Positions 7,173-60,384 of a stretch of DNA of 64,000 nucleotides are shown here, piece after piece. The first letter of the stretch is position 1. The number at the start of each line of letters is the position of its first letter. The stretch spans positions 35,388 to 99,387 of the forward strand of contig DATBPQ010000102.1 in NCBI GenBank assembly GCA_036561245.1, read 5' to 3'. A model generated the notes under the pieces. The model searched no databases. It was not told the DNA's origin and worked only from the letters and a program-made list of their open reading frames with translations. The translations under genes were made by a program, and so were the position numbers. Source of the DNA: Stellaceae bacterium (GTDB lineage Bacteria; Pseudomonadota; Alphaproteobacteria; ATCC43930; CGMCC-115725).

Positions 7173-7177
7173 CGCTC

Positions 7178-8933: not shown

Positions 8934-8941
8934 GGCGACCT

Positions 8942-11493: not shown

Positions 11494-11539
11494 GGCGCTA
11501 TAACTCGGGTAGGTCGCCCCGATGTCAATCCCGTGCGGC

Positions 11540-11640: not shown

Positions 11641-11677
11641 ACATTGCCTATGCCGTGTCGATCATGGACAATGCGCG

Positions 11678-16205: not shown

Positions 16206-16879
16206 TCAGCGCCGAGCCGGTAACCGACGCCGCGTACCGTGTGCAACAGCGCCGGCGCGAAACCGGCATCGATCTTCTGCCGCAGCTTACTGATATGCAC
16301 ATCGACCACGTTAGTCTGCGGATCGAAATGATATTCCCAGACATGCTCGAGCAGCATGGTCCGCGTCACCACTTGGCCGGCGTGGCGCATCATGAATTCG
16401 AGCAGGGCGAATTCGCGCGGCTTGAGAGCTATCGGCGTGCCGCCGCGCGTCACTCTGTGCGCCAGCAGGTCCATCTTCAGATCGCCGACTTCCAGCGCGG
16501 CGTTGCGGTCGGTGCCTTGCGAGCGGCGCGCCAGCGCGTCGAGCCGCGCCGCCAGCTCGCCGAAAGCGAACGGCTTGGTAAGATAGTCGTCGCCCCCGGC
16601 GCGCAGGCCGCGGATGCGGTCGTCGACCTCGGCCAGCGCGCTGAGGATCAGGATTGGCGTCTTGTTGCCGGTGGTGCGCAGCGTCTCGACGATGCTCAGC
16701 CCGTCGATGCCGCCCGGCAGCATGCGATCCATGACGATGACATCGTATTTTTCGGATGCGGCGAGGAACAACCCGTCACGCCCCGTGCCGGCCTGATCGA
16801 CGGCATGGCCGGCTTCGCGCAGTCCCTTGGCGATGAACTGCGCGACCCGTTCATTGTCTTCCACGACGAGGACTTTCAT
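16202..16879 (-). CDS. OmpR-family DNA-binding response regulator
   Basis: MKVLVVEDNERV...VIVMDRMLPG...KPF receiver domain, then a winged-helix C-terminus (VHISKLRQKI...TVRGVGYRL). I chose the internal ATG at 16879; the track start at 16981 adds 34 non-conserved residues. Confidence 0.9.
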   Translation of the reverse strand: MKVLVVEDNERVAQFIAKGLREAGHAVDQAGTGRDGLFLAASEKYDVIVMDRMLPGGIDGLSIVETLRTTGNKTPILILSALAEVDDRIRGLRAGGDDYLTKPFAFGELAARLDALARRSQGTDRNAALEVGDLKMDLLAHRVTRGGTPIALKPREFALLEFMMRHAGQVVTRTMLLEHVWEYHFDPQTNVVDVHISKLRQKIDAGFAPALLHTVRGVGYRLGAE

Positions 16880-16996
16880 GCACCTCACCGTATTCGTCAT
16901 TGCCGGGGCTTGACCGGCAATCATTTGACGGACCGTCCCGTCGCTCGCTTTAGACCCCCGGGTCACGCCCGGGGGTGACAAAGCAGTTCAACCTCG

Positions 16997-38059: not shown

Positions 38060-38070
38060 GAGCCGGAACG

Positions 38071-40383: not shown

Positions 40384-41425
40384 CGCGCCCCGCGCCGCCA
40401 AGCGCATCCTCGCCTGGCCGCGCGACCTGCGGCTCAACCCGATGCCGGGCATGGTCTATGACGACATGGAGCAGGGTTTCGGCTGGCGCGTCCGGCGCTT
40501 TAACTATTGGCGCGCGCTGATCGGCAGCGAGGCCATTCTGCATGTCAGCTTCCCCAACGTCGTGTTCCGCAACCGCTCCAAGGTCGTGACGCTGGCGCGC
40601 TATGCCCTGTCGGCAACGTCGCTGCGCGCCGCGCGGTTTCTGGGCCGGCGCTTGGTCTGGACGGTGCACAATCTCGCCGACCATGAGAGTTATCACCCGC
40701 GTCTCGAGGCGCGATTCATGGATTTTTACACCCGGCTGGTCGATCTCGCCGTGCATTTGAGCGAGGCCGGTCGCGAGGTCACGATGGCGCGCTATCCGCG
40801 TCTCGGCGCCATCCAAAACACCGTGATTCCGCATCCGCATTACGGCGAGATCATCGGCGAGCGGATGTCGCGCGAGGCGGCGCTGGCACGGCTCGGCCTG
40901 CCGCCCGACTGCAAGCTGATCCTCGCTTTCGGCGTGGTGCGGCGATACAAGAACCTGCTCAAGCTGATCCGCGCCTTCAACGACATGCCGGGCAACGATA
41001 CCCGGCTGTTGATCGCGGGCATGCCGCTCGATGCCGGCATCGCCGACGCGATGAAGCGGGTCGCCGGCGATGGCCGCGTCACGTTGATGCTGCGTACCAT
41101 CAAGGAGCCGGAGATCGCGACCCTGTTCAGCGCGGCAACGCTGGTGGTGGCGCCCTATCTCGAAATTCTCAATTCCGGCACCGCGTTCATGAGCCTGACC
41201 TACGGCCGGCCGATCCTGGTGCCGGATCGCGGCGCGCTCAAGGAATTGCGGACTCACGTCGGCGACGCATGGATCAAGCTGTTCGACGCGCCGCTGACGC
41301 CGCTGGAGCTCGGCGACGCGCTTTATTGGGCGCAGCAACCGCGTCCGCCGGCGCCGAATCTCAGCCGTTTCGCGCCGGAACGGATCGCCGCTTCCTACGA
41401 CGAGGCGTTCGCCGCCCTCATTTAA
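40355..41425 (+). CDS. Glycosyltransferase (GT-B, group 1-like)
   Basis: GTG at 40355 is preceded by AAGGAG 7 nt upstream. The C-terminal half (ILAFGVVRRYKN...LLIAG...ATLVVAPYLEILNSGTAFMSLTYGRPILVP) fits GT4-type donor-binding motifs. It overlaps the upstream gene by 29 nt. Confidence 0.7.
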   Translation: MTSLPASPIDAPRAAKRILAWPRDLRLNPMPGMVYDDMEQGFGWRVRRFNYWRALIGSEAILHVSFPNVVFRNRSKVVTLARYALSATSLRAARFLGRRLVWTVHNLADHESYHPRLEARFMDFYTRLVDLAVHLSEAGREVTMARYPRLGAIQNTVIPHPHYGEIIGERMSREAALARLGLPPDCKLILAFGVVRRYKNLLKLIRAFNDMPGNDTRLLIAGMPLDAGIADAMKRVAGDGRVTLMLRTIKEPEIATLFSAATLVVAPYLEILNSGTAFMSLTYGRPILVPDRGALKELRTHVGDAWIKLFDAPLTPLELGDALYWAQQPRPPAPNLSRFAPERIAASYDEAFAALI

Positions 41426-43430
41426 CCGTCGCGGTGTAGACGCCATCCCAGTCGGGCGGCGGCGGCGCTGCTTCGAACTCGCGGATGCGATGTTCGTAGA
41501 GCGCGTAAAACGGCATCACGAGTTCGGGCGCCTCGGCGCGGCAGGCATGAAGATGACGCCGCGCCTCCGCCCATTGCTGCGCGCGATAGGCCGCAAGCAA
41601 AGCATCGTGCGAGATCTTGAGCGCGACGAACGCCGGATTGGTCGCGACCGCCTCGTCGCCGACCAGCGTGAAAATGCGCACGGGCTTGGTCTTGCCCTTC
41701 ACCAGGATCAGGTCGAGCTCAAGATAGGCGAAGCCGGGACATTCGTTCGCCGTCGGCTCGTTGACGACGATATCGACGCCGTAGGTCTTGGACTGACCTT
41801 CAAGCCGCGAGCAGACATTCACTTCGTCGCCGAGCACGGAATAGTTGAGGCGCTGCGGCGTGCCCATGTTGCCGACACAACATTCGCCGGTGTTGATGCC
41901 GATGCCGATACGTACCGCGGTGTAGGGATGATGCGCCGCTTCGGCCTCGGCCTTGAGGCCGGCGTTGAACCGCACCAACTCCGAGCGCATCGCCAGCGCG
42001 GCGCGGCAGGCATGCTCGGCATGGGCGGGGTCGTCCACCGGCGCGTTCCAGAACGCCATGATCGCGTCGCCCATGTATTTGTCGATGGTGCCGCCGGCCG
42101 CGAGGATCGCGTCGCTCATCGGCGTCATGAAGCGGTTGACGAAATGCGTCAACTCCTGGGCGTTGAAGCGCTCGGAGATCGTGGTAAAGCTGCGGATGTC
42201 GCTGAACATCAGCGTCAGGTCGCGCATCTCGCCGCCGAGCTTCAGCATGCCTGGGTCGTCGGCGAGCCGCTTCACCAGTTGCGGATTGAGATAGCGCGCG
42301 AACGCCGACTGGATGAATTCGCGCTGGCGCCGCGCCTGCCGGCCGGTGATGGCGTCGGTGCCCCACAACGACAGCAGGAACGCGACGCTTGGCTCCAGAA
42401 GCGGCACCATCACGCCGGTGAAATAGGTCGCCGCGAAACCCGCCACCCAGAGCACGACGAGAATCACGGCGCCGACCGCAAGATAAAAACCGAAATGGCG
42501 GTGCAGCAAGCCGAACCCGGCGCCAAGCGCGGCCATGAACAGCACGAGCAGAATCTCGCCTGTGAGATCGAGCCGCTGTGAGTGGTGCCCGGCCAGCAAC
42601 TGCGCGACCGCGTCCGCATGTATCTCGACGCCCGGCAATTGGCCGCGCAGACCCGGATAAACCACATGGAACGGCGTGCGGTGGCGGTCGGTCAGGCTGA
42701 CGATTTCGCCGATCATGACCACCTTCCCGGCGAACCAGGATGCCGGCAAGAGCGGTGCGACATGGGCCGGATAAATCTTGAACGGACTCGTCTTGCTGTC
42801 GGGACGGCCATGCCAGACGATTTCTTCCTGCACCGCCGGCGTCTTGATCCCGGCGCTTGCCGCCACCGCGCGTGCCAGGCCGGGGATATATTTTCCGTCC
42901 GTCCCTTCGGCGCCCGGGAAAATCCAGCGCACCGTGCCATCCACCGGGTCGACCGCGAATTCCGCGCGCGCACGCAGGCGCGGCGGCAGGAAATCGTTGA
43001 GATATTTGAGTTGCGCCGAGTCGACAAATTGCCGGTTGTCGCTGTAGGAGACGTGAAGCGGCGTCTTGAGCGCAGCCATCGTGTCTTTCAGCGCCTTGTC
43101 CTTGTCCGGCTCGGTCGCCTGGTCGAACAGCACGTCGAGGCCGATGGCGCGCGGCTTCTTGGCATCGAGGCTGGCGAGGAGTTTCGCGAGGAAGCCGCGA
43201 TCGACCGGCGAGCGGTACGGAAACTGCTTAAGCGTATCCTCGTTGATCGCGACGATCACCACGTTGGGGTCCTGCGGCTCCGGCGGCAACATGGTCGCGA
43301 TGCGGATGTCGGCGACGATACGTTCGAGCTGAGTTAGAACCGCGATCTTGTGCGCCGCCACCATCGCGGCGGCGGTCACGATCAACGTAACGGCGGCAAA
43401 GACGACGAGAGCCCGCCATTTGAACTTCAT
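41418..43430 (-). CDS. CHASE2 sensor-domain class III adenylate/guanylate cyclase (predicted adenylate cyclase)
   Basis: 670 aa. TM1, then a periplasmic CHASE2 domain (VVIVAINEDTLKQFPYRSPVDRGFLAKLL...AIGLDVLFDQ), three TMs, then the cyclase domain (LTLMFSDIRSFTT, IDKYMGDAIMAFWNAP, IGINTGECCVGNMG, LGDEVNVCSRLE). Confidence 0.9.
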   Translation of the reverse strand: MKFKWRALVVFAAVTLIVTAAAMVAAHKIAVLTQLERIVADIRIATMLPPEPQDPNVVIVAINEDTLKQFPYRSPVDRGFLAKLLASLDAKKPRAIGLDVLFDQATEPDKDKALKDTMAALKTPLHVSYSDNRQFVDSAQLKYLNDFLPPRLRARAEFAVDPVDGTVRWIFPGAEGTDGKYIPGLARAVAASAGIKTPAVQEEIVWHGRPDSKTSPFKIYPAHVAPLLPASWFAGKVVMIGEIVSLTDRHRTPFHVVYPGLRGQLPGVEIHADAVAQLLAGHHSQRLDLTGEILLVLFMAALGAGFGLLHRHFGFYLAVGAVILVVLWVAGFAATYFTGVMVPLLEPSVAFLLSLWGTDAITGRQARRQREFIQSAFARYLNPQLVKRLADDPGMLKLGGEMRDLTLMFSDIRSFTTISERFNAQELTHFVNRFMTPMSDAILAAGGTIDKYMGDAIMAFWNAPVDDPAHAEHACRAALAMRSELVRFNAGLKAEAEAAHHPYTAVRIGIGINTGECCVGNMGTPQRLNYSVLGDEVNVCSRLEGQSKTYGVDIVVNEPTANECPGFAYLELDLILVKGKTKPVRIFTLVGDEAVATNPAFVALKISHDALLAAYRAQQWAEARRHLHACRAEAPELVMPFYALYEHRIREFEAAPPPPDWDGVYTATVK

Positions 43431-43437
43431 TCCGCGA

Positions 43438-44151
43438 CTAGCGGGCGGCTTGCAGCAGCGACTTTACTTGGGGCACGCAGCCGACCTGGATCATCCAGGC
43501 GGCACGCATCGCGTCGTTGCTCACGGCGGCGGGCATCGTCACCAACGTCACCGCGGTTTCCTTGTTGCCGACCCTGATCACATAGGTCTGGCGATTGCGC
43601 AGCGGCACGGCGGCGCCGAGCGGCAGGCGATCGGTCCCCGCCTGCCATTCGGTGCGCACCAGCCAGCTCCTGTCGTAGGGCGCGATGGTCACGGCTGACG
43701 CCCCGCCACCGCCAGGCCGCCAGAAAACGACCGGGTAGTTAGCGGGCAGGCAGCGCGTGCCGTCGCGCGTGACGTCGACCAGCCATGGCTGGGGCGGCAC
43801 CGGATCGTCGGCGGCGCCGCGCACCACGCCAAGTTCGGAATTGTCGGCCAGTTCCTGCGTCACCAGAGTCCGCAGCGCGCCCTTCACGTCCACCGTCGAG
43901 CCGCCCTGGCTCGGCGCTGGCGCGGCGTTCGACGGACCATGCAACTTGATGATTTCCCCGCTCGGCGAGATCAGGGTCACAACCTGCCCGTCCTTGAGCG
44001 CCAACGGCTTGCTGCCGTCGATCTCGGCGCCAGGCTTCAAATCGATGCCGCGCGCCTCGACCACGACGAGGTTGGCGGCGCGCGCAGCCGCGGCGCCCAT
44101 CGTCACGGCCAACAGGGTAACCGCCGCCATCGTGAGAAGTCGAGCGAGCAT
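43438..44151 (-). CDS. Exported 237-aa protein of unknown family (possible FecR-like N-terminal and DUF928-like C-terminal regions)
   Basis: The start ATG at 44149-44151 overlaps the CHAT stop (TGATG). Signal peptide MLARLLTMAAVTLLAVTMGAAAARA-AN. The longer track ORF (to 44622) overlaps the CHAT gene out of frame and is not credible. Confidence 0.7.
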   Translation of the reverse strand: MLARLLTMAAVTLLAVTMGAAAARAANLVVVEARGIDLKPGAEIDGSKPLALKDGQVVTLISPSGEIIKLHGPSNAAPAPSQGGSTVDVKGALRTLVTQELADNSELGVVRGAADDPVPPQPWLVDVTRDGTRCLPANYPVVFWRPGGGGASAVTIAPYDRSWLVRTEWQAGTDRLPLGAAVPLRNRQTYVIRVGNKETAVTLVTMPAAVSNDAMRAAWMIQVGCVPQVKSLLQAAR

Positions 44152-47100
44152 CAGTGCATCTCCCTCGTCGTCAGCGAGGACTGCCGCGTCGGCGCCGCAC
44201 CGGCCATGCCGCGATCGCCGTCGCCCAGCACGGTAAACGCGGCCCAATAGAACGGATTGGCGGTCCCCGGTTGACTTATGAGCGCCAGTTGCGATTGGCG
44301 CAAGGCCTGGGCGGTACCGCCGCTGCCGCCAAGGCGCTGGAACATGCCGACCATGAGCGAGGCGGTCGCGGCCGACGGCACCTGCCAGTGGCTCGCCACC
44401 AGCGTACGGGCGCCGGCGAAGAAGAAGGCCTGCGCCACGCCCGACAGCGCCTCGCCGCCGAGCTTCGTGCCGCCCTCGGCGGTATTGCAGGCCGACAGCA
44501 CGACGAGATCGGCGTTGAGCCGCAGCCCGGCGATTTCGCTGGCATCGAGCAACCCGTCCTCGGCCCGGGTCGCGGCCGGCGTCGCCGGTGGCGACAGCGC
44601 CAGCGCCGGCTGGGTCTGGCAATTGAGCTCGCCTGGCAGCAGGCCGTGGGTCGCGAAATAGAGGACGCGGAACTGGTCGAGCGGCTCCCGGCGGAACGCG
44701 GCTTCGGTCGCGCCCCGACCGGTCAGCAGATCGCCCGGCCCGGCACCCAGCGTCTGCGCCACGCGCTGCAATTCGCCGGCGGTGTCGGGCAGCGGCGCCA
44801 GCGCACGCAGCATCTGCGGCGGGATCGGCCCATCACCGGCGCAATGCGCGGCCAGCGCTTCGAGGCCGGTGCCGCGGCCCTTGGCAGAACCTGCGAAATC
44901 GGGATTGCCAACGCCAAGGAACGGCCGCGCGGCATGGGTAACGGCGGCCTTGTCGCGCAACGTCGTGAAGGCGCGCACCGACGGCACGACGCTGCCGGCA
45001 AAGCGGCGCACCAGCCAGGAAGCCCGGGCATAGTCGCGCGCTCCGCCCGGCGGCTGCGTCACCAGCAGCGCCAGCGGCAGGCTGGCGAGCGACTGACCGG
45101 GCGCCACGATCAGACTGTCGATGCCGGCGAGTTGGTTTTCGATCGGGCCGAACAGGGTGCGGTAAAGCTTGTAGACATCCGTCGCGTCGAATTCCTGGAT
45201 ACGGCCCTGGCGGATGTCGAGCGTGCGGCGGATGCCGCGCACCGCGGCGGCGATCTGGGTGCGGTCGGACTGGACCGGCCGCGCGACGAATCCGTGCGCC
45301 GTCACCAGGATCACGGCGGCGTGGTCGCGGCCGAACTCGAACTCGACAAGCGCCTCGTTCGGCGCCAGGCGCTTTTGCAGCGCCGCGAGTTCGACCGGCT
45401 CGGGGCTGGCGAGACGGAAATAGCCGGGGAACTGCTTGCGGATTTGCGCCTCGAGCGCCGCGTTACGCGCGGTCTCCTGGTTCACCTGGGCAAGCAGCGT
45501 GTTTTCCTTGTCGGCGCCGCGCTGCGCCTGCGGCAGCGAGCTCTCATAGGCCAGCATCAGCCGCGCATTGTCGCGTCGGCGCTCGGACTCTTGCAGGTCG
45601 CGCACCAGTTTTTCGGTCGCCGGATCGCGCGCCGCAAGCCGCGCCGACGCGCGCGCCACGGTCTGATCGGCGACGCTCGCCGACATGTATTGCAGCGCCT
45701 TGAAGAGCACGCCGTCGAGCTCGGCGCGGCGGTTCGGGAACTGCTTGCCAAGCGCGTTGTCGATTGCAACCAGCGGCGCGATCTGGTCGTAAACCAGAAG
45801 AGAACGCGTGACATCGTCCTTGGCGATGATGTCGAGCGCGAATTCGTAGGTGCGCAACGCCTCGTCGTAGAGCTTGTCGGCCGCGTAGACCCGGCCGATC
45901 GCCAGCGCCGTCATCGCGGTCGGCGCCGAATTGCCAAACAGGCGCTGATTGAAGATCAAGGCGCCGCGCAGGCTTTCCTCGGCTTCACGCAGCCGGCCTT
46001 CGCGCGCCAGCACGTCGCCGAGCGTCATCAACACGTCGGGCCCCCACCATGGCGGCAGATCGTGCTCCTCGCCGATGATGCCGAGCGCTTCCTTGGCCGC
46101 GGCCTCTGCGTAGGCGACATCGTTGGTGCGCCAAGCCATTGCGGCCGCGAGATTGAGCGTGTGCGCCAGCTCGCCGCGCATTGCGTCACGGGCTTCGCTG
46201 CCGCCGGCCAGTTCCTCGATGCCGGATTTTTTTTGCGCGATCAGATCGCGCCACATCGCCGCAGCGCTTTTGGCGTATCGCAACGCGTCGGCAAATTTGT
46301 CTCGATTGGCGGCGTCGAAACCGAGATAGACGAAATTGCGCGCGCGGTAGATCGGATTGTCCGACGCCTGGATGATCGGATCGGCGCGGCGGAACAGACC
46401 CGCCGCTTCCTCGAATCGGCCCTGGTTGCTGACCACGATGCCAAGATTCAAGAGCGTGGTCGCGACACCGATGGTTTCGGGACCGAAAGCGCGCACCTGA
46501 ATGTCGAGCGCCTCGCGATAGGCCTTTTCCGCGGCGGGATAATTCATCCGGCTGCTGTAGAGACGCGCCTGCTCGACCAGATCGCCATAGCGATTGAAGG
46601 AAGCGCCGCCGGAAATCTTGAGTTTATTGCCGAACGCCCCCTCAAGATCGCTTCGCGCGGCGTCGGTGCCGCCGAACGCAAAACCGGACGCCGGGCTGTA
46701 GCCGGCAAGCGACGCCATTTCCGCTTCGAGCGCCGGCATCAGCGTCGGCAGTCCGTCGCCTTGCACCAAATATCGCCCGAGCGCGGCGACGATCCGCACT
46801 TGCGGCCAGTCGCCGTCGACCATCGCGCAGGATTGCACCAACAGCTCGACGCCGTCTGGGGTGCGGGTCCATTTGCCCGCCTGACACACCATGCGGCTGG
46901 CGGAGTCGCGTCCGGCCGGGGCCTCGGCGGCGGCGCGCTCGATGGCGGCATGTCGCGCGGGTCCGGCCGGCGGCAGGGTCAGCGGCAGCACGATGGCGGA
47001 CACCGCGCCGCTGGGCCGGTTGCTGCTTTCGCCGCAGATGAGATAGACGGGCGCGGGCGCGCCTGGATCGGGCGCGATGTCGGCGCGCGGGGCGGTGCGG

Positions 47101-47213
47101 CACGCTTCGCCATTCAAGTCGCTCATGCCAACCGGCTTGTTGGCCGCGTGCGCCGGAACGCCTGCCAGCAGAACGATCGCGCCGAGCGCCGCGATGCCGG
47201 CCGCCCTTACCAT
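44151..47213 (-). CDS. Sec-exported TPR-repeat CHAT-domain (caspase-like) protease
   Basis: 1020 aa. Signal peptide IAALGAIVLLAGVPAHA-AN, a roughly 200-aa Cys-containing N-domain, TPR-like helical repeats, and a C-terminal CHAT domain. The catalytic dyad is present: YFATHG (His856, codon 44646-44648) and VLSACNT (Cys909, codon 44487-44489). Confidence 0.9.
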   Translation of the reverse strand: MVRAAGIAALGAIVLLAGVPAHAANKPVGMSDLNGEACRTAPRADIAPDPGAPAPVYLICGESSNRPSGAVSAIVLPLTLPPAGPARHAAIERAAAEAPAGRDSASRMVCQAGKWTRTPDGVELLVQSCAMVDGDWPQVRIVAALGRYLVQGDGLPTLMPALEAEMASLAGYSPASGFAFGGTDAARSDLEGAFGNKLKISGGASFNRYGDLVEQARLYSSRMNYPAAEKAYREALDIQVRAFGPETIGVATTLLNLGIVVSNQGRFEEAAGLFRRADPIIQASDNPIYRARNFVYLGFDAANRDKFADALRYAKSAAAMWRDLIAQKKSGIEELAGGSEARDAMRGELAHTLNLAAAMAWRTNDVAYAEAAAKEALGIIGEEHDLPPWWGPDVLMTLGDVLAREGRLREAEESLRGALIFNQRLFGNSAPTAMTALAIGRVYAADKLYDEALRTYEFALDIIAKDDVTRSLLVYDQIAPLVAIDNALGKQFPNRRAELDGVLFKALQYMSASVADQTVARASARLAARDPATEKLVRDLQESERRRDNARLMLAYESSLPQAQRGADKENTLLAQVNQETARNAALEAQIRKQFPGYFRLASPEPVELAALQKRLAPNEALVEFEFGRDHAAVILVTAHGFVARPVQSDRTQIAAAVRGIRRTLDIRQGRIQEFDATDVYKLYRTLFGPIENQLAGIDSLIVAPGQSLASLPLALLVTQPPGGARDYARASWLVRRFAGSVVPSVRAFTTLRDKAAVTHAARPFLGVGNPDFAGSAKGRGTGLEALAAHCAGDGPIPPQMLRALAPLPDTAGELQRVAQTLGAGPGDLLTGRGATEAAFRREPLDQFRVLYFATHGLLPGELNCQTQPALALSPPATPAATRAEDGLLDASEIAGLRLNADLVVLSACNTAEGGTKLGGEALSGVAQAFFFAGARTLVASHWQVPSAATASLMVGMFQRLGGSGGTAQALRQSQLALISQPGTANPFYWAAFTVLGDGDRGMAGAAPTRQSSLTTREMH

Positions 47214-53200: not shown

Positions 53201-56200
53201 CGACGAACTATCGCTGTCGATATTGCCGGTCAGCATGATCGGCGCGCCGGCCGAATATTGTCCGCCGGTCGTGTCGATGGTGAGGTCGGAACCGAGCGTG
53301 ATCTTCCCGCCATCCGCCTCGATCATCACTCGCGCGTTGTCGGTAACGATCGTGCCGCCCTTCAGGGTGATGTCGTTACCCTGCAATTGGACATGGCCAA
53401 TCGGCGCGCTATAGGTGCCGAGCGGGCCGTTGATGACGATATCGCCGGCACCGGCGAGGACGACGAGACCGTGTTCCGAATCCGGGGAGACGCCGCCGTT
53501 AAGCGTGACGTCGGCGCCAGCACCGCCAACAATGGTAGCGATCGGTCCGCCGTTCGACCGCTGATCGAGGCTGGCGTTGATGGTCACCGGCGCGCTTTGC
53601 GTGGCGAGAAAACCGTAAAGCTTCAACACATCGGCGCTGACGGTCACGCCGCCGGCGGAGGTCACGCCGCCCAATGCGATCGAGCCGATGCCATGCAGCC
53701 CGACATTCTGTCCGGCGAGCGCGGTAATGGTGACATCGTCGACCGCGTTGCCGCCGCCGATCGTGCCGAACAGCTTGATGCCGCCGGTGGAATTGGCCTG
53801 CTGCGTCACGGTCAGCGCCGCGCTGTCGCCGGGCGCGGCGTCGATGCTTGGCATGATCCGCAGATTGCCGGAATCGTTGACGAAGGTCGTGTCGTCGCTC
53901 AACAGGATGTGCTTGGTCTGGTCGAGCGTCGACGTGTCGATCGTGCCGCTCAGCGTCTGGGTCTGGCCGCATGTGTTCGGCGCGCCGCAAGCGAGCGCCC
54001 CATTCTCCCACACCAGACCCTGCCCCGCGTTCAGCGTGATCGCGGCGCCGCCGAGCGATCCGTCGAGCACGATATTGCCGCTGCTGACCGTGCCGTTGGT
54101 GGTGATCGTCAGGTTCGGTTGCGCAACATTGATGGCGCCGCTCAACACAATGTCGGCGCCGGCACCCGTGGCGGTCAGGTTGCCATTGAGCGCGATACTG
54201 GGCGTCAAGCCATCGATATAGGTCTGCGCGCCGGTGGTGGTGACCGCCTGCAACGAGATCGCGTTCGCGACGACAAGCACCGAGCCGAGCGCGTTGGTCT
54301 GACCGACAGCCGCGCCAAAGGTCACCGTGCCTGAGGTCGGACTAAGCTGCGCGGAATCCGGACTTGTAAACAGGTTCAACCCGAAGCCGCTGTTCGCAAC
54401 GGCTTCGTTCACCGGGCCGTTGAAGGTTATGTCGCCGCCGTTGGTGTGGATTTCCAGATCGTCGGTGAGTTGAACCGGCGCCGAGAAGGTGACGCTGCCA
54501 TTGCACGGCGTCGAGGTGCAGTTGAGGACCGAAATCTGATGGGTATGGATGCTGTCGCCGATCAGCATCGGCGACGTGCTCTTGAACGACACATAGGTCA
54601 ACGGCGTCAGGTCGCCGATATTGCCGCCGACCGTAATAGCGCCACCTTGGACACGCAGCCCCTCAGTCCCCGCGTCGCCTTCAATCGGGCCGAGCAGGTT
54701 GATCGCCCCGGCATTTCCCGTACCGCCGGCGGCGAGAATGAAGACGGTGGAACCGCCGTTGAAGAAGTCGGGAGAGAGACTGTTATCCGCGAGCCTGACG
54801 TAAGCCGCGCCTTGCAGCGGATCGCCGGAACTGTCGCCTTGAAGCGTTATGTTACCCGCAGCGCCGGTAATCACGGTGCTGGCATTGCTGTCCAGCTTGA
54901 TCAGGTTGGTGCCGGCGACGGCGAGGGTCTTGCCGCCGCGCGAGTCCAGCGTCGCCTGACTCGGCGTCGACGTGTCGCGCGCATCGCTTTCGCCGAGCAG
55001 CGTGATCGCGGGACCGATGGTCGCCGTCGCGGTCAGCGTAATATTGCCGCCCTTACCGGCGCCGGTGCTCTGCGTGGTGTCGCCGCCTTCGGTGTAGACA
55101 TGCGTCACGGTGAGCTGCTTACCGCTGATCGAAACATCGGCGCCGTCACCGGCATTGCCGTTGGCCGCGCTGCCGCCGAAAGCATCGACGCCAATCATGT
55201 TGCCGCTGTTGCCGTTCGACGTCGGCGCACCGACCGAGACGTTGCCACCCGTCGAGGCCAGCGTGACCGAACCGGCCTTGCCGCCGTTGCCGATCGCGCT
55301 GTTGAGGATCGCGGCGCCGCCGTTGGCGACCACGCCGTTCGGCAGCGTGATGTCGCCGCCGGCGGTGATGCTGACGATGCCGCCGTTGCCCGCGGACTGG
55401 CCGGGGCCGCTGTTGAAACCCGAAGAATAGCCGCCCGCAAAGACGCTGATATATTGAATCAGCGGCAGCGCGCCGTTCGTCGAACAGGGAGAAGCGTCGC
55501 ATACCACCGAACCGAGCTGGTCGCCGATCGAGACCCTGCCGCCGGCATTGATGGTGATGTTGCCGCCGCTCTTGCCCGTTGTGCCGTTCAGTCCGCCGCC
55601 AGCGAACAGGTCACGGCCGATCTCGACATTGCCGGTGATGTTGATGTTCACCGCGCCGGCATTGCCGGTGGGATTGAAGGTGCTGATGTAGCTGCCCGGC
55701 GCGTTGATGCTGGCCGCGCCATTGACGCAATCTGTCGTGCAGTTGGCGTTGCCGGTGCCCTCGACGACGAACTGGCCGACATGGAAGCCGTCGAAGTTCG
55801 GCGCGTTCAGCGGAATGTTGAGGTTGACGTTCTCGGCGCTGGTGATGGTGATGCCGGCGGGCGTGATGCCGGTCGTGCCGCCGGCGCTATTGTTGGCGCC
55901 GACACGGCCGTTGAAATTGATGTCGCCCGCGGTGCCTGCCGCCAGCGTCAGCGTGTGGGAGAACGCGACGCTATCGTCGAGCGTGTCGCTGAACGTGATG
56001 GTCGCGCCGGCGTAAGCGCCGCCGCCCGTCGTATCGATGCGGGTATCGCCGGCCAGCACCGCCGCGTCATCGAACGTGACCTGGCCGCCGGCGGTGGTGA
56101 TGTTGCCGCCCACCGCGATCGAAGCGCCACTCAACTCGACCGCGCCGATAGAGCCGGGAAGGACCGGCGAGCCGATGCCCCCCGTGACGGTGGCCGTGCC

Positions 56201-58543
56201 GTCGGTCGCCGTGACCGTGACGCTGGCGAACGGCGACGCCGTGCCGATAGTGCCGTACAGCGTCACGGCCGTGCCGGTGGCCGTCAGCGGAATGGGGCCG
56301 TTCACCACGGGTGGCGAGGCCATGTCGATGGTCGGAATCACCGATATGCCGCCGCCGCCAACGGCTACGATGTCCACGAGCGTAGAGGCCGGGTCGATCA
56401 GGATGTGCCTCGTTTGATCGAGCGTCTCGGTAATGTCGACATCGCCCCCTTCGTCGATGGAAAGGAGCTGGGTAGGACCCTCCTTATAGGTGACGTTGGA
56501 CGGGAAGTTGGCGTCCGCGCCCGAAACGGGAGTCAAATTGTCGCCGTTGTTCTGAAGCACCGTGCCGCCGATCGCGATCAGGCCGCCGCTGGTGGTGCCG
56601 TTCGCGGTCGCATCCAAAGTCAGATTGCCGGTGTTCCCCGTCAGCGCGCCGGTGATCAGGATTTCGCCGCCGCTGATCGTGCCGTTGGTGACCACGCTGA
56701 TCGGGCTGGTTGCGGCGACATCGACATTGCCGACGAACTGGATGTCGCTCCCAGGTGTGCAGGCTTCCTGGTCGCAGGGCGGGGTCACGCCTTTTCCGGC
56801 GGTCAGATTGCCGTTGAGCGTGATCGTGCCAAGCGCGTTTTCGGCGCCCTTGGCGACGTAATATTGCGAGCCGCCGGTGGTGACGTCGGCGCCGATAGCG
56901 ATGGCGGTACCGGTCAACAGGACGTTGCCGCCGAGCGCCGTGCCGCCGTCGCCCGTGGTATTCAGCGCGGCGTTGAGCGTGATCGCGCCGTTGCCGCTCG
57001 GCGTCTCCCCCGGATCGTTGGCCGAGAGCTTGATGTTTCCGCCATTGGTGGTGATCGAGCCGTTGACCACGATGCTGTTGCCGGCGAGGGCCGCGATGGC
57101 GACGCCCGGGGCCGCGATGTCGACCGGATCGGTGAAGGTGATGTTGTTCGTCGCCTGGAGCACCACGTTGCTGGTCGCGGCGTCGATGGTCGCGGGCGTG
57201 ACCGTGCCGCCGGTATTGGCGACGATCACGTTGAGCGGATCGAGCAGCCAAGTGCCAACAGCGCCGTGCGGCGCGCGCGTGTCGACCGTGCCGGTGCCGA
57301 TGGTGAGGTCGGCGGCGCTCGAGGTTTCGACGTCGCCGCCGTTGCCGCCGTTGGGACCGCCCCGCGCGGTAATCGTGCCGTTGAAAGCGGTGTGCTGCTG
57401 CGACCACACCGCGACCTGGCCGCCGTTGCCGTTGTCGGTCGCGTCGGCGGCGATGGTCGCGCCTTGCGCGATCGTCACGGTCTGCGCGTTGGGCAGCGGG
57501 CCGGCGCCGTGGAAATTGCCACCGATCAGCACGAGACCGCCGCCGGCCTGGCCCGAGGCGTTGATGTTGGCGCCGATGGTCAGGTCGATGGTTGCGCCCG
57601 TCACCTGCACTGTGCCGCCGGTGCTGCCCGGCGTCAGGCCCTGCGCACTGACCGTGCCGCCGACCGAGACCGTGCCGCTCGCGCCGCCGTCGAGAATGAC
57701 GGTGCCGTTCTTGATGCTGACCGAGTTGGCCTGAACGATGCCAGTGGTGTTGATGACGTTGTCGACGATATTGCCGACCGACCGCGCGGTGAGCTGAACC
57801 GTGCCGCCGTCCGCGGCGATGGTGCCGGCGTTCTTGATCTGCGCGTTCGCGGCCGGCGCGCTGACCGCGAAGCTCAGGAGGTTGTCGCCGTCGAAATCGA
57901 CCGCGAAGGTCTTGCCGGCGCCGACGGCCACCGTGCCGAGCTTCGCGGAGATGGTGCCTTCGTTATCGACATTCGGCGCGGCCAGCACCGTCGAGCCGCC
58001 TTGCGTGTTGATTGTCCCGTAATTGGCGATGCCGGCGCCGGCATTGGGTGACGCGATCCCGAACTGATACTTGCCGGCCAGGAAATCGGAATTCGCAATG
58101 TCGGCGGTGGTCGCGAGCAGGCCGGCGGCGTTGACCGTCGAGCCCTTGCCGAACAGCACGCCGTTGGGATCGACCAGCCAGACCTGACCGTTCGATTGAA
58201 TCGTGCCGAGCACGGTGGCGGCTTGGCCGCCGAGCACGCGGTTGAGCGAAATGGATTTGGAATTCGGCTCCTGATAGATGACCGACTGGCCTTTCAGGAC
58301 CTTGTACGAATTCCAGTTGATGATCGATTTCTGCGTGCTCTGCTTGATGAGCGTTTCTTGATTGAGCGTCTGGATGATCGCCTGGCCGCCGACCACCTGG
58401 CCGCCTTGCGGTCCCGCCCATGCCGGAGTCGTGATGAGAGACGCCGCCGCGGCCAGCGCGACGCACGCTCGCAATGCTCGGGCGCGTTCCCGCACCCAGC
58501 TCCGGATCCGTTCAGGCCCTCCAAGCCCGAATGACCAATTCAA
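47207..58543 (-). CDS. Giant two-partner-secretion exoprotein (TpsA; filamentous haemagglutinin N-terminal domain protein), 3778 aa
   Basis: TTG start at 58543 with GGAGG 5 nt upstream. Extended signal peptide, then a TPS domain (IINWNSYKV...LNRVLGG...VWLVDPNGVLFG). The Gly/Thr/Asn-rich body is consistent with a beta-helix and carries internal super-repeats. It ends in a Pro-rich C-terminal region. Confidence 0.9.
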   Translation of the reverse strand: MNWSFGLGGPERIRSWVRERARALRACVALAAAASLITTPAWAGPQGGQVVGGQAIIQTLNQETLIKQSTQKSIINWNSYKVLKGQSVIYQEPNSKSISLNRVLGGQAATVLGTIQSNGQVWLVDPNGVLFGKGSTVNAAGLLATTADIANSDFLAGKYQFGIASPNAGAGIANYGTINTQGGSTVLAAPNVDNEGTISAKLGTVAVGAGKTFAVDFDGDNLLSFAVSAPAANAQIKNAGTIAADGGTVQLTARSVGNIVDNVINTTGIVQANSVSIKNGTVILDGGASGTVSVGGTVSAQGLTPGSTGGTVQVTGATIDLTIGANINASGQAGGGLVLIGGNFHGAGPLPNAQTVTIAQGATIAADATDNGNGGQVAVWSQQHTAFNGTITARGGPNGGNGGDVETSSAADLTIGTGTVDTRAPHGAVGTWLLDPLNVIVANTGGTVTPATIDAATSNVVLQATNNITFTDPVDIAAPGVAIAALAGNSIVVNGSITTNGGNIKLSANDPGETPSGNGAITLNAALNTTGDGGTALGGNVLLTGTAIAIGADVTTGGSQYYVAKGAENALGTITLNGNLTAGKGVTPPCDQEACTPGSDIQFVGNVDVAATSPISVVTNGTISGGEILITGALTGNTGNLTLDATANGTTSGGLIAIGGTVLQNNGDNLTPVSGADANFPSNVTYKEGPTQLLSIDEGGDVDITETLDQTRHILIDPASTLVDIVAVGGGGISVIPTIDMASPPVVNGPIPLTATGTAVTLYGTIGTASPFASVTVTATDGTATVTGGIGSPVLPGSIGAVELSGASIAVGGNITTAGGQVTFDDAAVLAGDTRIDTTGGGAYAGATITFSDTLDDSVAFSHTLTLAAGTAGDINFNGRVGANNSAGGTTGITPAGITITSAENVNLNIPLNAPNFDGFHVGQFVVEGTGNANCTTDCVNGAASINAPGSYISTFNPTGNAGAVNINITGNVEIGRDLFAGGGLNGTTGKSGGNITINAGGRVSIGDQLGSVVCDASPCSTNGALPLIQYISVFAGGYSSGFNSGPGQSAGNGGIVSITAGGDITLPNGVVANGGAAILNSAIGNGGKAGSVTLASTGGNVSVGAPTSNGNSGNMIGVDAFGGSAANGNAGDGADVSISGKQLTVTHVYTEGGDTTQSTGAGKGGNITLTATATIGPAITLLGESDARDTSTPSQATLDSRGGKTLAVAGTNLIKLDSNASTVITGAAGNITLQGDSSGDPLQGAAYVRLADNSLSPDFFNGGSTVFILAAGGTGNAGAINLLGPIEGDAGTEGLRVQGGAITVGGNIGDLTPLTYVSFKSTSPMLIGDSIHTHQISVLNCTSTPCNGSVTFSAPVQLTDDLEIHTNGGDITFNGPVNEAVANSGFGLNLFTSPDSAQLSPTSGTVTFGAAVGQTNALGSVLVVANAISLQAVTTTGAQTYIDGLTPSIALNGNLTATGAGADIVLSGAINVAQPNLTITTNGTVSSGNIVLDGSLGGAAITLNAGQGLVWENGALACGAPNTCGQTQTLSGTIDTSTLDQTKHILLSDDTTFVNDSGNLRIMPSIDAAPGDSAALTVTQQANSTGGIKLFGTIGGGNAVDDVTITALAGQNVGLHGIGSIALGGVTSAGGVTVSADVLKLYGFLATQSAPVTINASLDQRSNGGPIATIVGGAGADVTLNGGVSPDSEHGLVVLAGAGDIVINGPLGTYSAPIGHVQLQGNDITLKGGTIVTDNARVMIEADGGKITLGSDLTIDTTGGQYSAGAPIMLTGNIDSDSSSSPRALSIFSGAGPVTFNGSLGSLEPLGQVNVLTAGTVTFNDPTGSTSLVTAGKNVTFGGAQIGGGGEGDPTILGNIVAQNDLTIDTTGNFQTLGAAINLGLPVDVAIPGGSSLTLAAGTAGRIDIAAPIGANVPVDNFLVSANQVLLGAGINSAGGTIAFNAPVVLSSSFTGSQIVVATNADGATDGTIVFNSTIDSQNSGQVGLFLQTGGGGSVALNGKIGGTTPIGDLTVTASLINLYSDITTQSNKVEFDGPVVLQNSIAINTAGGQGFNVPGGDVTFNGTVDALSSGVQALTVNAGGQGCAGESCGGGAGAPGTVTFAGDVGSGEALNTLLVRGGDISLQNVTTTGSQYYVANGVGVNQGTVTLNGNLTAGSGVIPATHTAGSDIQFIGNVNVAGSDPVTVTTNGTIAGGEILVNGNLTGNLGNLTLNAGNGLIAIGGTVLQNQSGGGVTGCPAATCVEGMTNEYISTDPTFTLDVLALFSSEHILIDDPNATAIVINNDTPGHDLTVFSTIDMIGRGASPPTLSITQTQNSTTGVTVFGTIGDAAPFGGVQVTALSGNPVEVHSIGSPVFYGAGAGGVTLTAGAGAGVTMGGTISTESGAVDVYGPVTLAGNLAIDTTVFDSGNGGYVNFHNTVDGGASGGQALTINAGGDLIAFNGNVGSSTPLGAVTLTSNEEIDLYGNLFTKGGAVTINGGLVLQNSGLTIDTTYGSSAGANVTFNGTVDSPGCECDEQSYSALTVNAGAGNIAIRGDWGGGVPLGTVTLTADTVALGANITTAGTAISGSVNINGNILLVAGGNNVGPIGGDPVIDTTAGGSTAGADIVIAGNGGPGKSIGHIDDLITGSDALMLSAGAGTVDLEAEIGQTAPIGNLMLAGQTIQLGGGATDGLTINTFGAGGNGAVTMQGAVVLEGAVTIDTTTVGSSGANIQFGASNQLASIDNADGQAGFYGISMNAGTGTIDMYATIGGTTPTGTLTLSGAGGINLGGNITTAGGSVTLNGPTVLENSITIDTTFKNDGAAISFNGTLDDSTSLTHTLSLSAGNGDITFAGRVGTEYINGTDFVNDSGSPPAAVIITSANNVNLTMPLGPNGDGFSVGQFIIEGNGDVNGTTPGAASLTTTSFISTNTGGDAGAINIVTTGDVNIGQNIFAVGGNGTGNETMGNGGAVTINAGGAINIGSAIALTTQGSGSQTFATSPRSIAADGAQIVSPEQTPGDGGAITLTGASINLYQGASSTGGGADLTEATANGGKGGAISLTATNGNVTLGSAATGSLVGLQSSGGNAAGGNGGAGGDIVISATSLSFAFIESSGGQSSAGGTLGNGGNIKLIATATSGAAVTIFGNGDDPQATDLSSIGHPALLSLGATAGAITIESSDDGHGNASPLLGSSYIQLVDNSSYSNQYGGATVEIVAAGGAPGFGGKVYLGGPIQGANGTENLRLLVENGSAHVTGDVSNLNNIVLGCCGADINGNANTLPEGLTGGNGGVITFDGAVTANNIVDQRLYASPTLTTTAAIYLGAVNVANYNGATDMNDDSVAVEFKKGGTFTSSFDPGKGPVYVAGTFTFKSGFNPGTHNGCTGPCFKIDDDLNLIGSATFDASAVNDPINLIGSIIPSAAGESFTMLAGTGTITVGGTSQLGTTGIHELAGLVLQGGEIDLNNGGATTTTLQTYTGNLVLGANTTLKTDATGGVIELLGPVATGAHSVTVSSDAVVLAGNWSGTGARNLYPTTANTAVTLGGNAPVSLVSFLLNAAELAFLDGSSPSMVTIGSHANVSTGAQQTGAVTTHDFTFDAPLTIIGSSITADPINKDPGTGNLTLDAGGTGGVNGTNGITSVNLGKGDFLTINAGTSSLTGTVNGQSGNGAAQYVTANNGCAGCTFNGVADGSAGGGNPSPPPTAFTPPPVLPPPPQPVDIVLPPSPPDQPPPETPSDSDPTLTAYLNQGSQKPAANAEYHPQTVHPLGAYLNQMLIPSVPHNGVPGISFGYSLSGNSALW

Positions 58544-58686
58544 TTCTGCCTCCGACCGACCTCGTCTCGCAGGGCGGTACGCCGTTATACGGTTCCTAGC
58601 CTCACCCCAATCCGCGCAGTGGCAAGCATGGCGCTATAATAAGTAAAATACCAACAAATTAACGTCCGGCGGCACCCGTCTTAGTA

Positions 58687-60384
58687 TTAAAACTTCACCG
58701 ATCCGTTGAATAGGACGCGCATCGCCTTTTTGCCGAAATCGCTGGTCTGCACCTGTTTCAGCGGAAACGCGGCTTCGAGCCCCAGCGACAGCCGATCCTC
58801 GACGATCATACGCGCGCCAAAGCCGGTCGAGGCGATGTAGTCCGGCGAGACAATGCCGCTGTGCTGCCAAACCTTGGCCGCGTCGTAAAAGGCATACAGC
58901 TCGGCGTGATTGATCTTGATGTTCGGACTGTCGATATGCTTGCCGTCGATCCCCTCCAAATCCCACCGTACCTCGGCGTCGCCGCCGATGCCGATATCGC
59001 CGGTGATCGCCGCCGGGTCGTAGCCGCGCCCGATCTGGGCGCCCCCGAAACTGATCTCCTCGCCGACATAGAGCGTGTCGAAACCGTACTGGCCGGTGCC
59101 GGTAAGAGCGAGACTCAGCGGCCCGTAAAGCTGCTGGATGCGGCGCACCACGGCGCTGAGCTTGGTGAAATCGGGCACCGCGCCCAAATGCGACACGTTA
59201 GGCGCGCCGGCATGCGAGGCGCCGAATATCGGCAGGCCCTGGGTCAGGTCGAGCGTCGCGGTGGTGGTGCCGTTGAGCGTGCCGTTATTCTCGAACACCA
59301 GCGCGACATCGACTTCACGCCACTGGTCCTCGTCGTTGATGAGGCCGGCAAGCTCGTGCAGCAACGATTGCTGCCAGGTGAAGCCGGCGTCGATCGACAG
59401 CTTGGTCTGGCGCGAGTTGATCAACGGATAGGTCAGGCGTGCGCCGAACGCCTGGTTGTCGGAAGTAAAATCGGTGGCACCCGCAACGCCGGCGGGCTGG
59501 CCGTGCGCATTGAGCGCGCTGAGCGTCAGCGTCAAGCCGCTGTCGCCGAGCGGATAGAGATACTTGATCGATTCCGAATTGCGGATATGCGCCTGGTCCG
59601 GCGCCGCGGCGAGATCGAGCAGAACGACGCCGCCTTCGTTGAACGGCGAGCGGATCGCGACATCGGCCGACGCTGTCCATATATCCGTAAGCGCGGCACC
59701 GCGATTGTCGATCGACAGCAGCACCGAGACGCGCTCGGACGAAATTGTCGCGACGAGGTCCGACGCACCCGGCTGGTTGGGCGACGGCCGCAACAGGCCC
59801 GAAACGCCGGCGCCATAGCCGCTGTTGGCGCGGGTCAACGCATCCTCGATCACCTCGAGCCTCAATGGCCGCGATTGCGTCACCGGCGCCAAGAGGTGCT
59901 CGACCCGGGCGCGCTCGCTTTCGCTGCCGCCGGTCACCGAGACGGCGGCGACATAGCCCTCGACCACCGAAATCGTGAAGATGCCGTTATTGACGCTTTG
60001 CGCCGGCACGTAGACACGCGTCAGCACATAACCGTCGGTGCGGTACTTCTTTTCGATCTCGTCGGCGACACGGATGATGTCGGAGAGATGCACGCTCTTG
60101 CCGATCAGCGGCTCGATCAGCGAGCGGAACGCGTTCGGGCCATAGACCTTGGCGCCGGTGACGCGGATATCCTTGATCTTGAACGACAGTTCCTCGACGG
60201 CGCGCGGCACCGGCGACGGGCGCGGCGCCTCGATGCGGAAATCGAATTGCGGCGGCGTTGCTTCAGGGATCGGCCGGGTCTGGCCGGGCGAGATCTGGCC
60301 GGACGGGGTGATGTTTTGCGCATGCGCCGCGACGGCCAATGCCAGACCCACAACGGTGGCCGCGGTCGCCTGGAACAGACGCAA
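58687..60384 (-). CDS. TpsB outer-membrane transporter (ShlB/FhaC/HecB family, POTRA + 16-strand barrel)
   Basis: 565 aa. TTG start at 60384. Signal peptide VVGLALAVAAHA-QN, POTRA_2-like region (FKIKDIRVTGAKVY...FTISVVEGYV), and a barrel ending in ...LFNGSVKF with a terminal aromatic residue. Confidence 0.9.
   Translation of the reverse strand: MRLFQATAATVVGLALAVAAHAQNITPSGQISPGQTRPIPEATPPQFDFRIEAPRPSPVPRAVEELSFKIKDIRVTGAKVYGPNAFRSLIEPLIGKSVHLSDIIRVADEIEKKYRTDGYVLTRVYVPAQSVNNGIFTISVVEGYVAAVSVTGGSESERARVEHLLAPVTQSRPLRLEVIEDALTRANSGYGAGVSGLLRPSPNQPGASDLVATISSERVSVLLSIDNRGAALTDIWTASADVAIRSPFNEGGVVLLDLAAAPDQAHIRNSESIKYLYPLGDSGLTLTLSALNAHGQPAGVAGATDFTSDNQAFGARLTYPLINSRQTKLSIDAGFTWQQSLLHELAGLINDEDQWREVDVALVFENNGTLNGTTTATLDLTQGLPIFGASHAGAPNVSHLGAVPDFTKLSAVVRRIQQLYGPLSLALTGTGQYGFDTLYVGEEISFGGAQIGRGYDPAAITGDIGIGGDAEVRWDLEGIDGKHIDSPNIKINHAELYAFYDAAKVWQHSGIVSPDYIASTGFGARMIVEDRLSLGLEAAFPLKQVQTSDFGKKAMRVLFNGSVKF

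Follow-up and report, generated by a model that had tools for sequence, protein, structure and literature searches.

A recurrent gene module in Alphaproteobacteria associates a two-partner secretion exoprotein with an exported TPR-CHAT protease, a small exported protein and a CHASE2 cyclase

Two-partner secretion (TPS) systems, each consisting of a TpsB transporter and a TpsA exoprotein, are known for adhesins, cytolysins and contact-dependent inhibition (CDI) toxins, and we know of none that feeds a second-messenger pathway. A 64,000-nucleotide stretch of a Stellaceae bacterium genome (contig DATBPQ010000102.1; ~65% G+C), the whole of which was analyzed and is called the window here, raises the question of whether such a connection exists. 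In it, tpsB and tpsA are followed head to tail on the minus strand by genes for a tetratricopeptide repeat (TPR)-CHAT protease, a small exported protein and a CHASE2 cyclase. An initial annotation regarded these five genes as a coupled module that relays secretion status through CHAT cleavage and CHASE2 to cyclic AMP (cAMP). To our knowledge, CHASE2 has no established ligand or mechanism, its only genetic handle being the rhizobial NsrA-CyaK pair, and DdvA is the one periplasmic caspase-like protease that has been studied, so a single operon unites open questions on TPS signaling, CHASE2 domains and periplasmic caspase-like proteases. Here we report that the module recurs beyond the close relatives of the window, and we consider it highly probable that its five genes are functionally coupled. 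The proposed relay is plausible as an inference.

The first gene, tpsB (58687..60384, minus strand; 565 amino acids [aa], TTG start), encodes an Omp85-type outer-membrane transporter with Pfam matches to POTRA_2 (6e-20) and ShlB (4e-23), and the second, tpsA (47207..58543, minus; 3778 aa, TTG start), has a TPS domain (5.8e-29) as its sole Pfam match. The protease gene (44151..47213, minus; 1020 aa) matches TPR_12 and CHAT (PF12770, 2.1e-63), the small gene (43438..44151, minus) encodes an exported protein of 237 aa with zero matches in Pfam and NCBIfam, and the cyclase gene (41418..43430, minus; 670 aa) matches CHASE2 (9.8e-32) and Guanylate_cyc (5.5e-20). Our check of open reading frames (ORFs) bore out every coordinate given for the module in the initial annotation, and the Pfam searches agreed with its domain calls. 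The G+C content at third codon positions (GC3) is 0.83-0.84 for the four ORFs other than the small one, like that of real genes. Proteins identical to those of the window were found on soil-metagenome contigs.

Three of the four junctions are tight. The tpsA and protease genes overlap by 7 nucleotides (nt), the end of tpsA (AGC GCG CTA TGG TAA) holding the protease ATG as ATGGTAA. The stop codon of the protease gene and the start codon of the small gene form TGATG (1-nt overlap), and between the TAG of the small gene and the ATG of the cyclase gene there is a 7-nt gap. The claim that all four junctions lack room for a promoter thus stands for these three but fails for the AT-rich, 143-nt tpsB-tpsA spacer (58544..58686, minus), which alone among the junctions has room for an internal promoter or processing site. 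Promoter and terminator scans gave no consensus promoter or terminator in the spacer and nothing above shuffled sequences, and an Rfam scan of the module, spacer included, returned zero elements. The counterpart of the spacer is 67 nt long in one related locus (L001), and the tpsB and tpsA genes overlap in another.

Is this arrangement found elsewhere? Neighborhoods were taken from direct look-ups, 13 genome loci, 80 metagenome loci and annotated plasmids. The locus searches were seeded with a single sequence and with a 9-sequence alignment, and the loci (L numbers in the following) were annotated by tblastn with three reference-protein sets and collapsed to 79 clusters at 90% identity. The gene directly upstream of the small gene could be read in 52 clusters (at least 900 nt upstream): it encodes CHAT in 36, the cyclase in 10 and another protein in 6, the last including one C14 caspase and two adhesins that carry the TpsA tail described below. 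Directly downstream of the small gene, CHASE2 was found in 31 of 51 clusters. When only non-redundant clusters with at least 2.5 kb on each side were counted, a clan-CD protease was present in 25 of 27, a cyclase in 23, both in 22 and TpsA in ~22, where TpsA was counted by a TPS domain or TpsB (BLAST) or by a huge open frame ending in the tail upstream of CHAT. The small gene is common to every module variant.

As for phylogenetic reach, linkage extends beyond near relatives, down to ~27-30% identity of the small protein, and covers Rhodospirillales, Rhizomicrobium and Sphingomonadales, with gene orders being permuted. The gene order of the window recurs at 42-52% small-protein identity in metagenome contigs and metagenome-assembled genomes, and also in an isolate, Niveispirillum cyanobacteriorum TH16, with a small protein 37% identical to that of the window (tblastn). 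Plasmid pMSHV of Sphingobium herbicidovorans has the order Crp/Fnr, CHAT, CHASE2 cyclase, small protein, TpsB, TpsA, and its small protein is a clear homolog (hhalign probability 99.2%). Recurrence in dozens of independent loci places the arrangement far beyond chance.

TpsB stands between TpsA and CHAT in L041 and L042, and between the small gene and the cyclase in L039. Distant members (29-36% identity) have the cyclase followed by the small protein, with CHAT in L029 and L102 and with neither protease seen in L090 and L108. An exported Peptidase_C14 caspase replaces CHAT in L094 (5431-6915, minus), L107 (544-2634, plus) and, in another gene order, L086 (3-1562, plus); the retention of the protease-small protein-cyclase trio with C14 in place of CHAT argues for a real functional link from protease to cyclase.

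A decayed copy of the module (L007/L008/L056, ~6780-12700) has a 338-aa TpsB fragment and intact small and cyclase genes; TpsA is gone, and a tail remnant (...EDFSNWG...) is readable upstream. In L007, the CHAT protein is shortened to 618 aa and the catalytic His and Cys are both replaced, so the catalytic dyad is lost exactly where TpsA is lost. Taken together, the permuted orders, the protease swap and the loss of the dyad along with TpsA point to functional coupling and not to inherited synteny alone. The CHAT/C14 interchange, the permuted orders and two cultured hosts for experiments are new here.

Which feature of the exoprotein could connect it to the other products? TpsB possesses POTRA domains and a ShlB/FhaC-type barrel (Pfam), as type Vb transporters do, and its gene has a ribosome-binding site (GGGGGAAA) and encodes a signal peptide (MRLFQATAATVVGLALAVAAHA). 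Likewise consistent with type Vb secretion, TpsA has an N-terminal TPS secretion domain at aa 45-294 (57662..58411, minus; PF05860, 5.8e-29; TIGR01901, 3.8e-17) and its gene adjoins tpsB; TpsB is therefore, by homology, the predicted exporter of TpsA. Residues 22-414 match the enterotoxigenic Escherichia coli adhesin EtpA (E 4e-76), with HMW1 and HxuA next, and the composition of TpsA, rich in G, T, A and N, suggests that the remainder is a beta-helix. On near-identical contigs, public gene calls give TpsA 3460 to 3755 aa, and several of these calls overrun the end of the locus.

The C-terminus of TpsA holds a conserved element that the initial annotation did not notice. The window protein ends with a proline-rich linker (~aa 3674-3716; 47396..47524, minus; PSPPPTAFTPPPVLPPPPQPVDIVLPPSPPDQPPPETP) and then a short tail (...GVPGISFGYSLSGNSALW). 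Orthologous TpsA proteins carry equivalent low-complexity linkers, which are not alignable. The last 45 aa (47210..47344, minus; ...LGAYLNQMLIPSVPHNGVPGISFGYSLSGNSALW-COOH) are conserved across orthologs: the exoproteins range from 1768 to 3778 aa, yet their last 40-45 residues are kept across clades. The tail consensus starts with IPG(V/L)L, continues with GVP and closes with [FY]S.[SW]G[ND].A[LR]W; its variants include SGNSALW, WGNEALW, WGNEARW and LGRVW. When tails of over 25 independent loci are aligned, P25, G35 and W40 (positions within the aligned 40-residue tail segments) are invariant, and the sequence upstream is not alignable. The Trp is the final residue, or is followed by 1-3 residues, in nearly all loci; the Sphingobium variant reads GAGNEDLW and continues for 21 extra residues. 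All module-linked TpsA proteins keep the motif, including that of L041, though TpsB there separates tpsA from CHAT, and in the window the codons of the tail run into the CHAT start codon. The tails were gathered from the loci and not from a protein search; a 40-aa tail profile run against proteins gave 11 contig-end fragments only and zero full TpsA.

In L066 (2-1321) and L084 (2-1318), the same W-ended tail closes adhesin C-termini that contain MBG_2 and YDG domains (...EFSNWGNEAFWQ and ...ELSSWGNDASWQ, respectively), and the tail-bearing adhesin directly precedes the small gene. On these sequence grounds, the tail is the best candidate for what physically joins the exoprotein to its periplasmic partners, be it CHAT, the small protein or both, and we propose it as a candidate periplasmic recognition or cleavage element. 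With its 45 residues and terminal Trp, it offers a concrete handle on the module.

The protease has a signal peptide (residues 1-23), and its AlphaFold2 (AF2) model (pLDDT 84.3) shows an N-terminal alpha/beta region (~30-170), a TPR solenoid (~183-615) and the CHAT domain (~620-1000). The dyad consists of His856 (44646-44648, minus; motif FATHG) and Cys909 (44487-44489, minus; S907-A908-C909 in motif LSACNTA), both invariant in 43 orthologs, and this motif conservation agrees with the choice of Cys909 as the catalytic Cys in the initial annotation. Export, which had also been proposed, is upheld by the finding that the orthologs all carry a signal peptide or lipobox, together with three conserved Cys pairs. 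The signal peptide is of the lipoprotein type in some orthologs (LTGC, AAGC and LSAC in L001, L003 and L022) and ordinary in the window, which suggests that some lineages anchor the protease in the membrane, while elsewhere it is probably soluble.

In Foldseek searches, the top match of the protease was the periplasmic TPR-CHAT protein DdvA (E 6e-13), with Csx29 and separase next (~1e-11 to 1e-9); the structural link to DdvA is absent from the initial annotation. The CHAT domain and His-Cys dyad, together with a fold matching these three proteins, make it a predicted CHAT protease. Two CHAT orthologs have precomputed Peptidase_C25 matches. The TPR segment also matches the TPR of kinesin light chain (E 9e-18). 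Kinesin light chain TPRs bind W-acidic and C-terminal Y-acidic peptides, and the TpsA tail (DEDYSSWGNEALW / GYSLSGNSALW) appears to resemble such peptides. An acidic and aromatic tail and a kinesin-light-chain-like TPR suggest, as a suggestion only, that the TPR is the partner of the tail.

The small protein has a signal peptide, invariant C134 and C225, and several invariant Trp, Arg and Asp residues, and is modeled as two beta-sandwich domains followed by C-terminal helices (AF2, pLDDT 84.5). First-pass homologs came from Alphaproteobacteria only. A profile search of 1.84 billion representative proteins (clusters at 50% identity) then gave a family of 1608 clusters at E≤1e-3, of which 1070 also pass E≤1e-10. 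No relatives were found in Pfam (37 members, even at E≤10), NCBIfam, PADLOC or PDB sequences, and Foldseek gave only generic Ig/FN3-like matches (TM <0.3) and zero specific fold relatives. That so large a family is without a Pfam or NCBIfam model had escaped the initial annotation.

Two candidate affiliations of the small protein were rejected. Its hhalign probability against the N-terminus of the Sinorhizobium meliloti FecR+TPR protein is 0.16%, and for DUF928 (PF06051) none of the 37 members matches at E≤10 and hhalign gives 0.4-0.6% against a DUF928 profile so shallow (3 sequences) that a remote relationship could have escaped it. In L090, a convergent gene (10790-11692, minus) adjoining the small gene and a second CHASE2 cyclase encodes a 300-aa exported protein that shows a P.F.W...Y.W pattern and weakly resembles DUF928 (hhalign E 0.0034, probability 9.6%), a possible bridge from DUF928 to the CHASE2-associated small proteins. 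Public gene calls differ on the start of the small gene (window 44130-44151; L113-L116), giving either 237 aa (ATG over the CHAT stop) or 230 aa (Met8).

The cyclase combines a CHASE2 domain (aa 21-304; 42519-43370, minus) with a class III cyclase domain (aa 403-583; 41682-42224, minus). Hydrophobic segments at 3-33 (an N-terminal transmembrane segment) and 287-342 (a transmembrane bundle) flank CHASE2, which predicts a periplasmic CHASE2 and a cytoplasmic cyclase domain. This predicted architecture is that of CHASE2 receptor cyclases of the CyaK/CyaD type, and the protein is ~37% identical to the S. meliloti cyclase encoded at the cyaK position on pSymB. Candidate readers of a cyclic nucleotide flank the module in L001 (12760-15385), the P0077 contig (12667-14103), L023 (9785-10423), L029 (1-703) and L108 (4669-5385). 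They comprise PilZ, a second cyclase (of the dCache type), an MscS channel bearing a cyclic nucleoside monophosphate (cNMP)-binding domain and Crp/Fnr-type regulators.

How might these parts work together? We tentatively favor, while stopping short of calling it probable, a device that spans the envelope and signals from the cell surface inward. TpsB would export TpsA as an EtpA-like filament, as homology indicates, while the proline-rich linker and W-ended tail would remain periplasmic, like the FhaB prodomain; such retention is suggested by the co-conservation of the tail with periplasmic partners. There, the tail would be bound by the TPR-CHAT protease, the small beta-sandwich protein or both. 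Upon a change in the state of the surface filament, CHAT, with its intact His856/Cys909 dyad, would cut the tail or a partner, and the small protein, as the invariant partner of the cyclase, would hand the event to periplasmic CHASE2. The cytoplasmic class III domain would then make cAMP, to be read by Crp-type or other cNMP receptors, such as those encoded nearby in several relatives.

In its most far-reaching form, the proposal is of a new class of outside-in signaling. The filament would be threaded in the TpsB pore, with its tail serving as a tethered ligand or substrate for TPR-CHAT, and engagement, tension or loss of the filament would lead to proteolysis and, through a new periplasmic adaptor family and CHASE2, to cAMP. 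The protease-adaptor-CHASE2 core would be a general periplasmic sensing unit (>1000 family clusters) whose inputs differ by lineage. We regard this wider claim as possible but doubtful. Were the relay real, bacteria would have a means of signaling the condition of a surface filament to cAMP, and CHAT would gain a substrate, CHASE2 a partner and the >1000-cluster family a function. Cultured carriers of the module are available in N. cyanobacteriorum TH16 and S. herbicidovorans MH.

Several observations weigh against such a surface-to-cAMP pathway. One clade (L003, L040, L052, L076 and relatives) has TpsA-CHAT-small protein and no cyclase within 10 kb, so processing of TpsA can stand alone. Conversely, L029, L090 and L094 have the cyclase and small protein, with the protease present or not, and no TPS gene within 10 kb, which makes TPS one possible input and not an obligate part. 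The two groups together imply that the five genes are not an obligate unit. In L066 and L084, no CHAT was seen beside the tail-bearing adhesin in the available contig stretch. The kinesin light chain likeness may reflect the TPR_12 repeat type alone, no Crp-type gene lies within the window, and cAMP is a presumed nucleotide product.

The cyclase-less clade makes a processing or release role of CHAT the main rival. In this alternative, CHAT and the small protein would serve only the periplasmic maturation, release or quality control of TpsA, as SphB1, DegP and CtpA act on FhaB and LapG on LapA, whereas the CHASE2 cyclase, sensing the environment separately, would do no more than regulate the operon or belong to its regulon and would not read the proteolytic event. 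Besides the clade itself, the tail and CHAT are co-conserved and translationally coupled, the dead CHAT of L007 coincides with loss of TpsA, and degradation of the FhaB prodomain provides a precedent (PMC4542190; PMC8263021). Set against this is the position of the small gene, which adjoins the cyclase, on either side, in 41 of ~50 informative clusters. The protease-small protein-cyclase trio moreover outlasts both the loss of TPS and the change from CHAT to C14, and the parts stay together in permuted orders. We consider a role in processing only to be rather unlikely.

A second alternative takes the W-ended tail as a C-terminal sorting signal, which a clan-CD enzyme resembling PorU or GPI transamidase would remove while attaching TpsA, or handing it over, to an envelope anchor, with the cyclase monitoring the process. 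Clan-CD enzymes that process C-terminal signals are known, two CHAT orthologs have the Peptidase_C25 matches noted above, and the motif lies at the C-terminus or within 1-3 residues of it in nearly all loci. The tail, however, is without a hydrophobic or basic anchor pattern, 21 residues follow the motif in Sphingobium, and no conserved candidate for anchor synthesis occurs in the neighborhood. TPS substrates also exit N-terminus first via TpsB, leaving a C-terminal export signal unneeded. Sorting of this kind is improbable.

Could the locus instead serve conflict or defense? TPR-CHAT would then sense an invader protein (e.g., a phage component), the cyclase would make a nucleotide alarm and TpsA would serve at the surface as decoy or receptor. 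Defense systems often contain CHAT and caspase domains, DdvA is the top structural match (PMC11506125) and Pycsar PycC profiles are among the matches of the cyclase domain (best E 1.2e-28). The PycC match, however, reflects generic class III similarity, the cyclase being nearest to rhizobial CHASE2 cyclases and bearing a CHASE2 sensor, and there is no Pycsar effector in the window. PADLOC was blank for four of the five proteins, the exception being a generic TPR match, and no effector gene was found. The locus is chromosomal, lies beside housekeeping and polysaccharide genes and is vertically conserved across orders. We find a defense role quite improbable.

A tpsBA pair with a very large exoprotein also brings to mind a CDI-like or cytolysin system in which CHAT and the small protein would be accessory or immunity factors. 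The initial annotation saw neither a VENN-type toxin tip nor an immunity gene, and both observations withstood a sequence scan and Pfam search of TpsA, which gave zero VENN or VDNN motifs and zero toxin domains, and an inspection of the downstream ORFs, which are conserved exported proteins unlike immunity genes, with no immunity-like ORF among them. CDI systems have a pretoxin VENN motif, a polymorphic toxin C-terminus and an immunity gene; in the window the first and last are lacking, and the TpsA C-terminus is conserved across clades instead of being polymorphic. This makes such a system very improbable. Coincidental adjacency or an annotation artifact has a negligible probability, given dozens of independent loci, permuted orders and gene-like GC3 in four ORFs.

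How does the module compare with known systems? Our search of the full-text literature gave no description of a linkage between two-partner secretion and CHAT or CHASE2 genes, nor any functional study of a module of this kind. The families of the parts are known; the assembly is a member of no described system. The closest solved fold is that of DdvA, a Myxococcus anti-sigma factor whose periplasmic TPR-CHAT region has been proposed to sense a protein and start signaling by proteolysis (PMC11506125). Both DdvA and the window protease have a periplasmic TPR-CHAT with a His-Cys dyad. [quoted passage not shown] The window protease is a free periplasmic protein, or a lipoprotein in relatives, to which a separate CHASE2 cyclase, a TPS exoprotein and a small beta-sandwich protein are attached; its N-terminus is a signal peptide or lipobox, and the window has no sigma or anti-sigma gene.

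On the cyclase side, the S. meliloti CHASE2 cyclases CyaK, CyaD1 and CyaD2 answer a protein signal via outer-membrane NsrA (PMC13001267). At the nsrA position on S. meliloti pSymB (L028, 3186-8794), we found a 1219-aa FecR+TPR gene; its stop and the start codon of the CHASE2 cyclase gene overlap, a translational coupling like that in the window. The two systems share, besides the related cyclase, a TPR partner encoded directly upstream and translationally coupled. In contrast to the window, S. meliloti has no TPS pair, CHAT or member of the small-protein family at this locus, its partner being one FecR+TPR protein; a FecR domain, in turn, was not matched by any module protein (Pfam). CHASE2 cyclases of Campylobacterota also cluster with FecR-domain and TPR proteins (PMC9239204).

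Among exoproteins, Bordetella FhaB is the nearest precedent in layout. The prodomain of FhaB lies in the periplasm, and its regulated degradation is under the control of its extreme C-terminus (PMC4542190; PMC8263021). FhaB/FhaC and the window pair share a TPS exoprotein with a C-terminal proline-rich stretch and a conserved extreme C-terminus, a likeness of layout only. The FhaB prodomain, however, measures ~1200 aa, and general proteases degrade it (DegP, then others), whereas the window has a ~45-aa tail, a dedicated CHAT protease and a cyclase.

Csx29 of the type III-E Craspase and separase share the TPR-CHAT architecture and are switchable, substrate-specific signaling proteases. Both are cytoplasmic and activated by RNA or the cell cycle, whereas the window protease is exported, and no Cas7-11/gRAMP, Csx30 or Csx31 gene is found in the window or the related loci. 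In the LapD/LapG/LapA system, the fate of a giant surface adhesin threaded through an outer-membrane pore depends on a periplasmic cysteine protease, and a protein of cyclic-nucleotide signaling crosses the inner membrane. The parallel is no more than an analogy: the Lap system works inside-out (cyclic di-GMP controls the protease), its adhesin is a type I secretion substrate with an N-terminal retention module and its protease is unrelated.

The initial annotation further pointed to CHAT, CHASE2, DUF928 and haemagglutinin-type genes side by side in cyanobacteria. CHAT/CHASE2/DUF928 neighborhoods do exist on Nostocales plasmids, but in the three clusters sampled neither haemagglutinin-type nor TPS genes were seen beside them. 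Plasmids of Nostoc punctiforme (pNPUN01), Tolypothrix and Aulosira encode a clan-CD protease, a CHASE2 membrane protein and, in a gene overlapping the end of the CHASE2 gene, an exported protein of only ~240 aa. Unlike the window cyclase, the one CHASE2 protein scanned (from Nostoc) is without a cyclase domain, and its N-terminal region is weakly CHAT-like. These neighborhoods look like a parallel arrangement.

In the window, the upstream neighbors of the module are hemD and a carboxylesterase gene. On its other side, a large locus for polysaccharide biosynthesis and export (18600-41425, both strands) converges on the module. It encodes a UDP-glucose dehydrogenase, a heparinase II/III-like protein, a Wzy-like polymerase, several glycosyltransferases, an asparagine-synthase-like protein, an FkbM methyltransferase, an AAA_22 ATPase and Poly_export/SLBB, Wzz/GNVR and Bac_transf proteins, a gene set that we take to resemble exosortase-type exopolysaccharide loci. 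That this locus is the target of a cAMP output is speculation. The cluster also includes a 799-aa ORF (37984-40383, plus) with gene-like GC3 (0.80) and no Pfam match. A candidate sixth module gene, a 357-aa ORF (40373-41446, minus) that overlaps the cyclase stop by 29 nt, was rejected as the Arg-rich antisense of a plus-strand glycosyltransferase gene (40169-41425).

A group of genes 23 kb from the module (14814-18517, minus) encodes a HAMP/HisKA sensor kinase, a 259-aa ORF and a DegP/HtrA-type protease (Trypsin_2 and two PDZ domains). The latter means that a general periplasmic protease is also available; in Bordetella, DegP starts the degradation of the FhaB prodomain. Farther away, a serC leader (Rfam RF00517, 47 bits; 10100-10153, minus) lies directly upstream of a 385-aa ORF (8942-10099), which is followed by a serA-like dehydrogenase gene (7359-8933).

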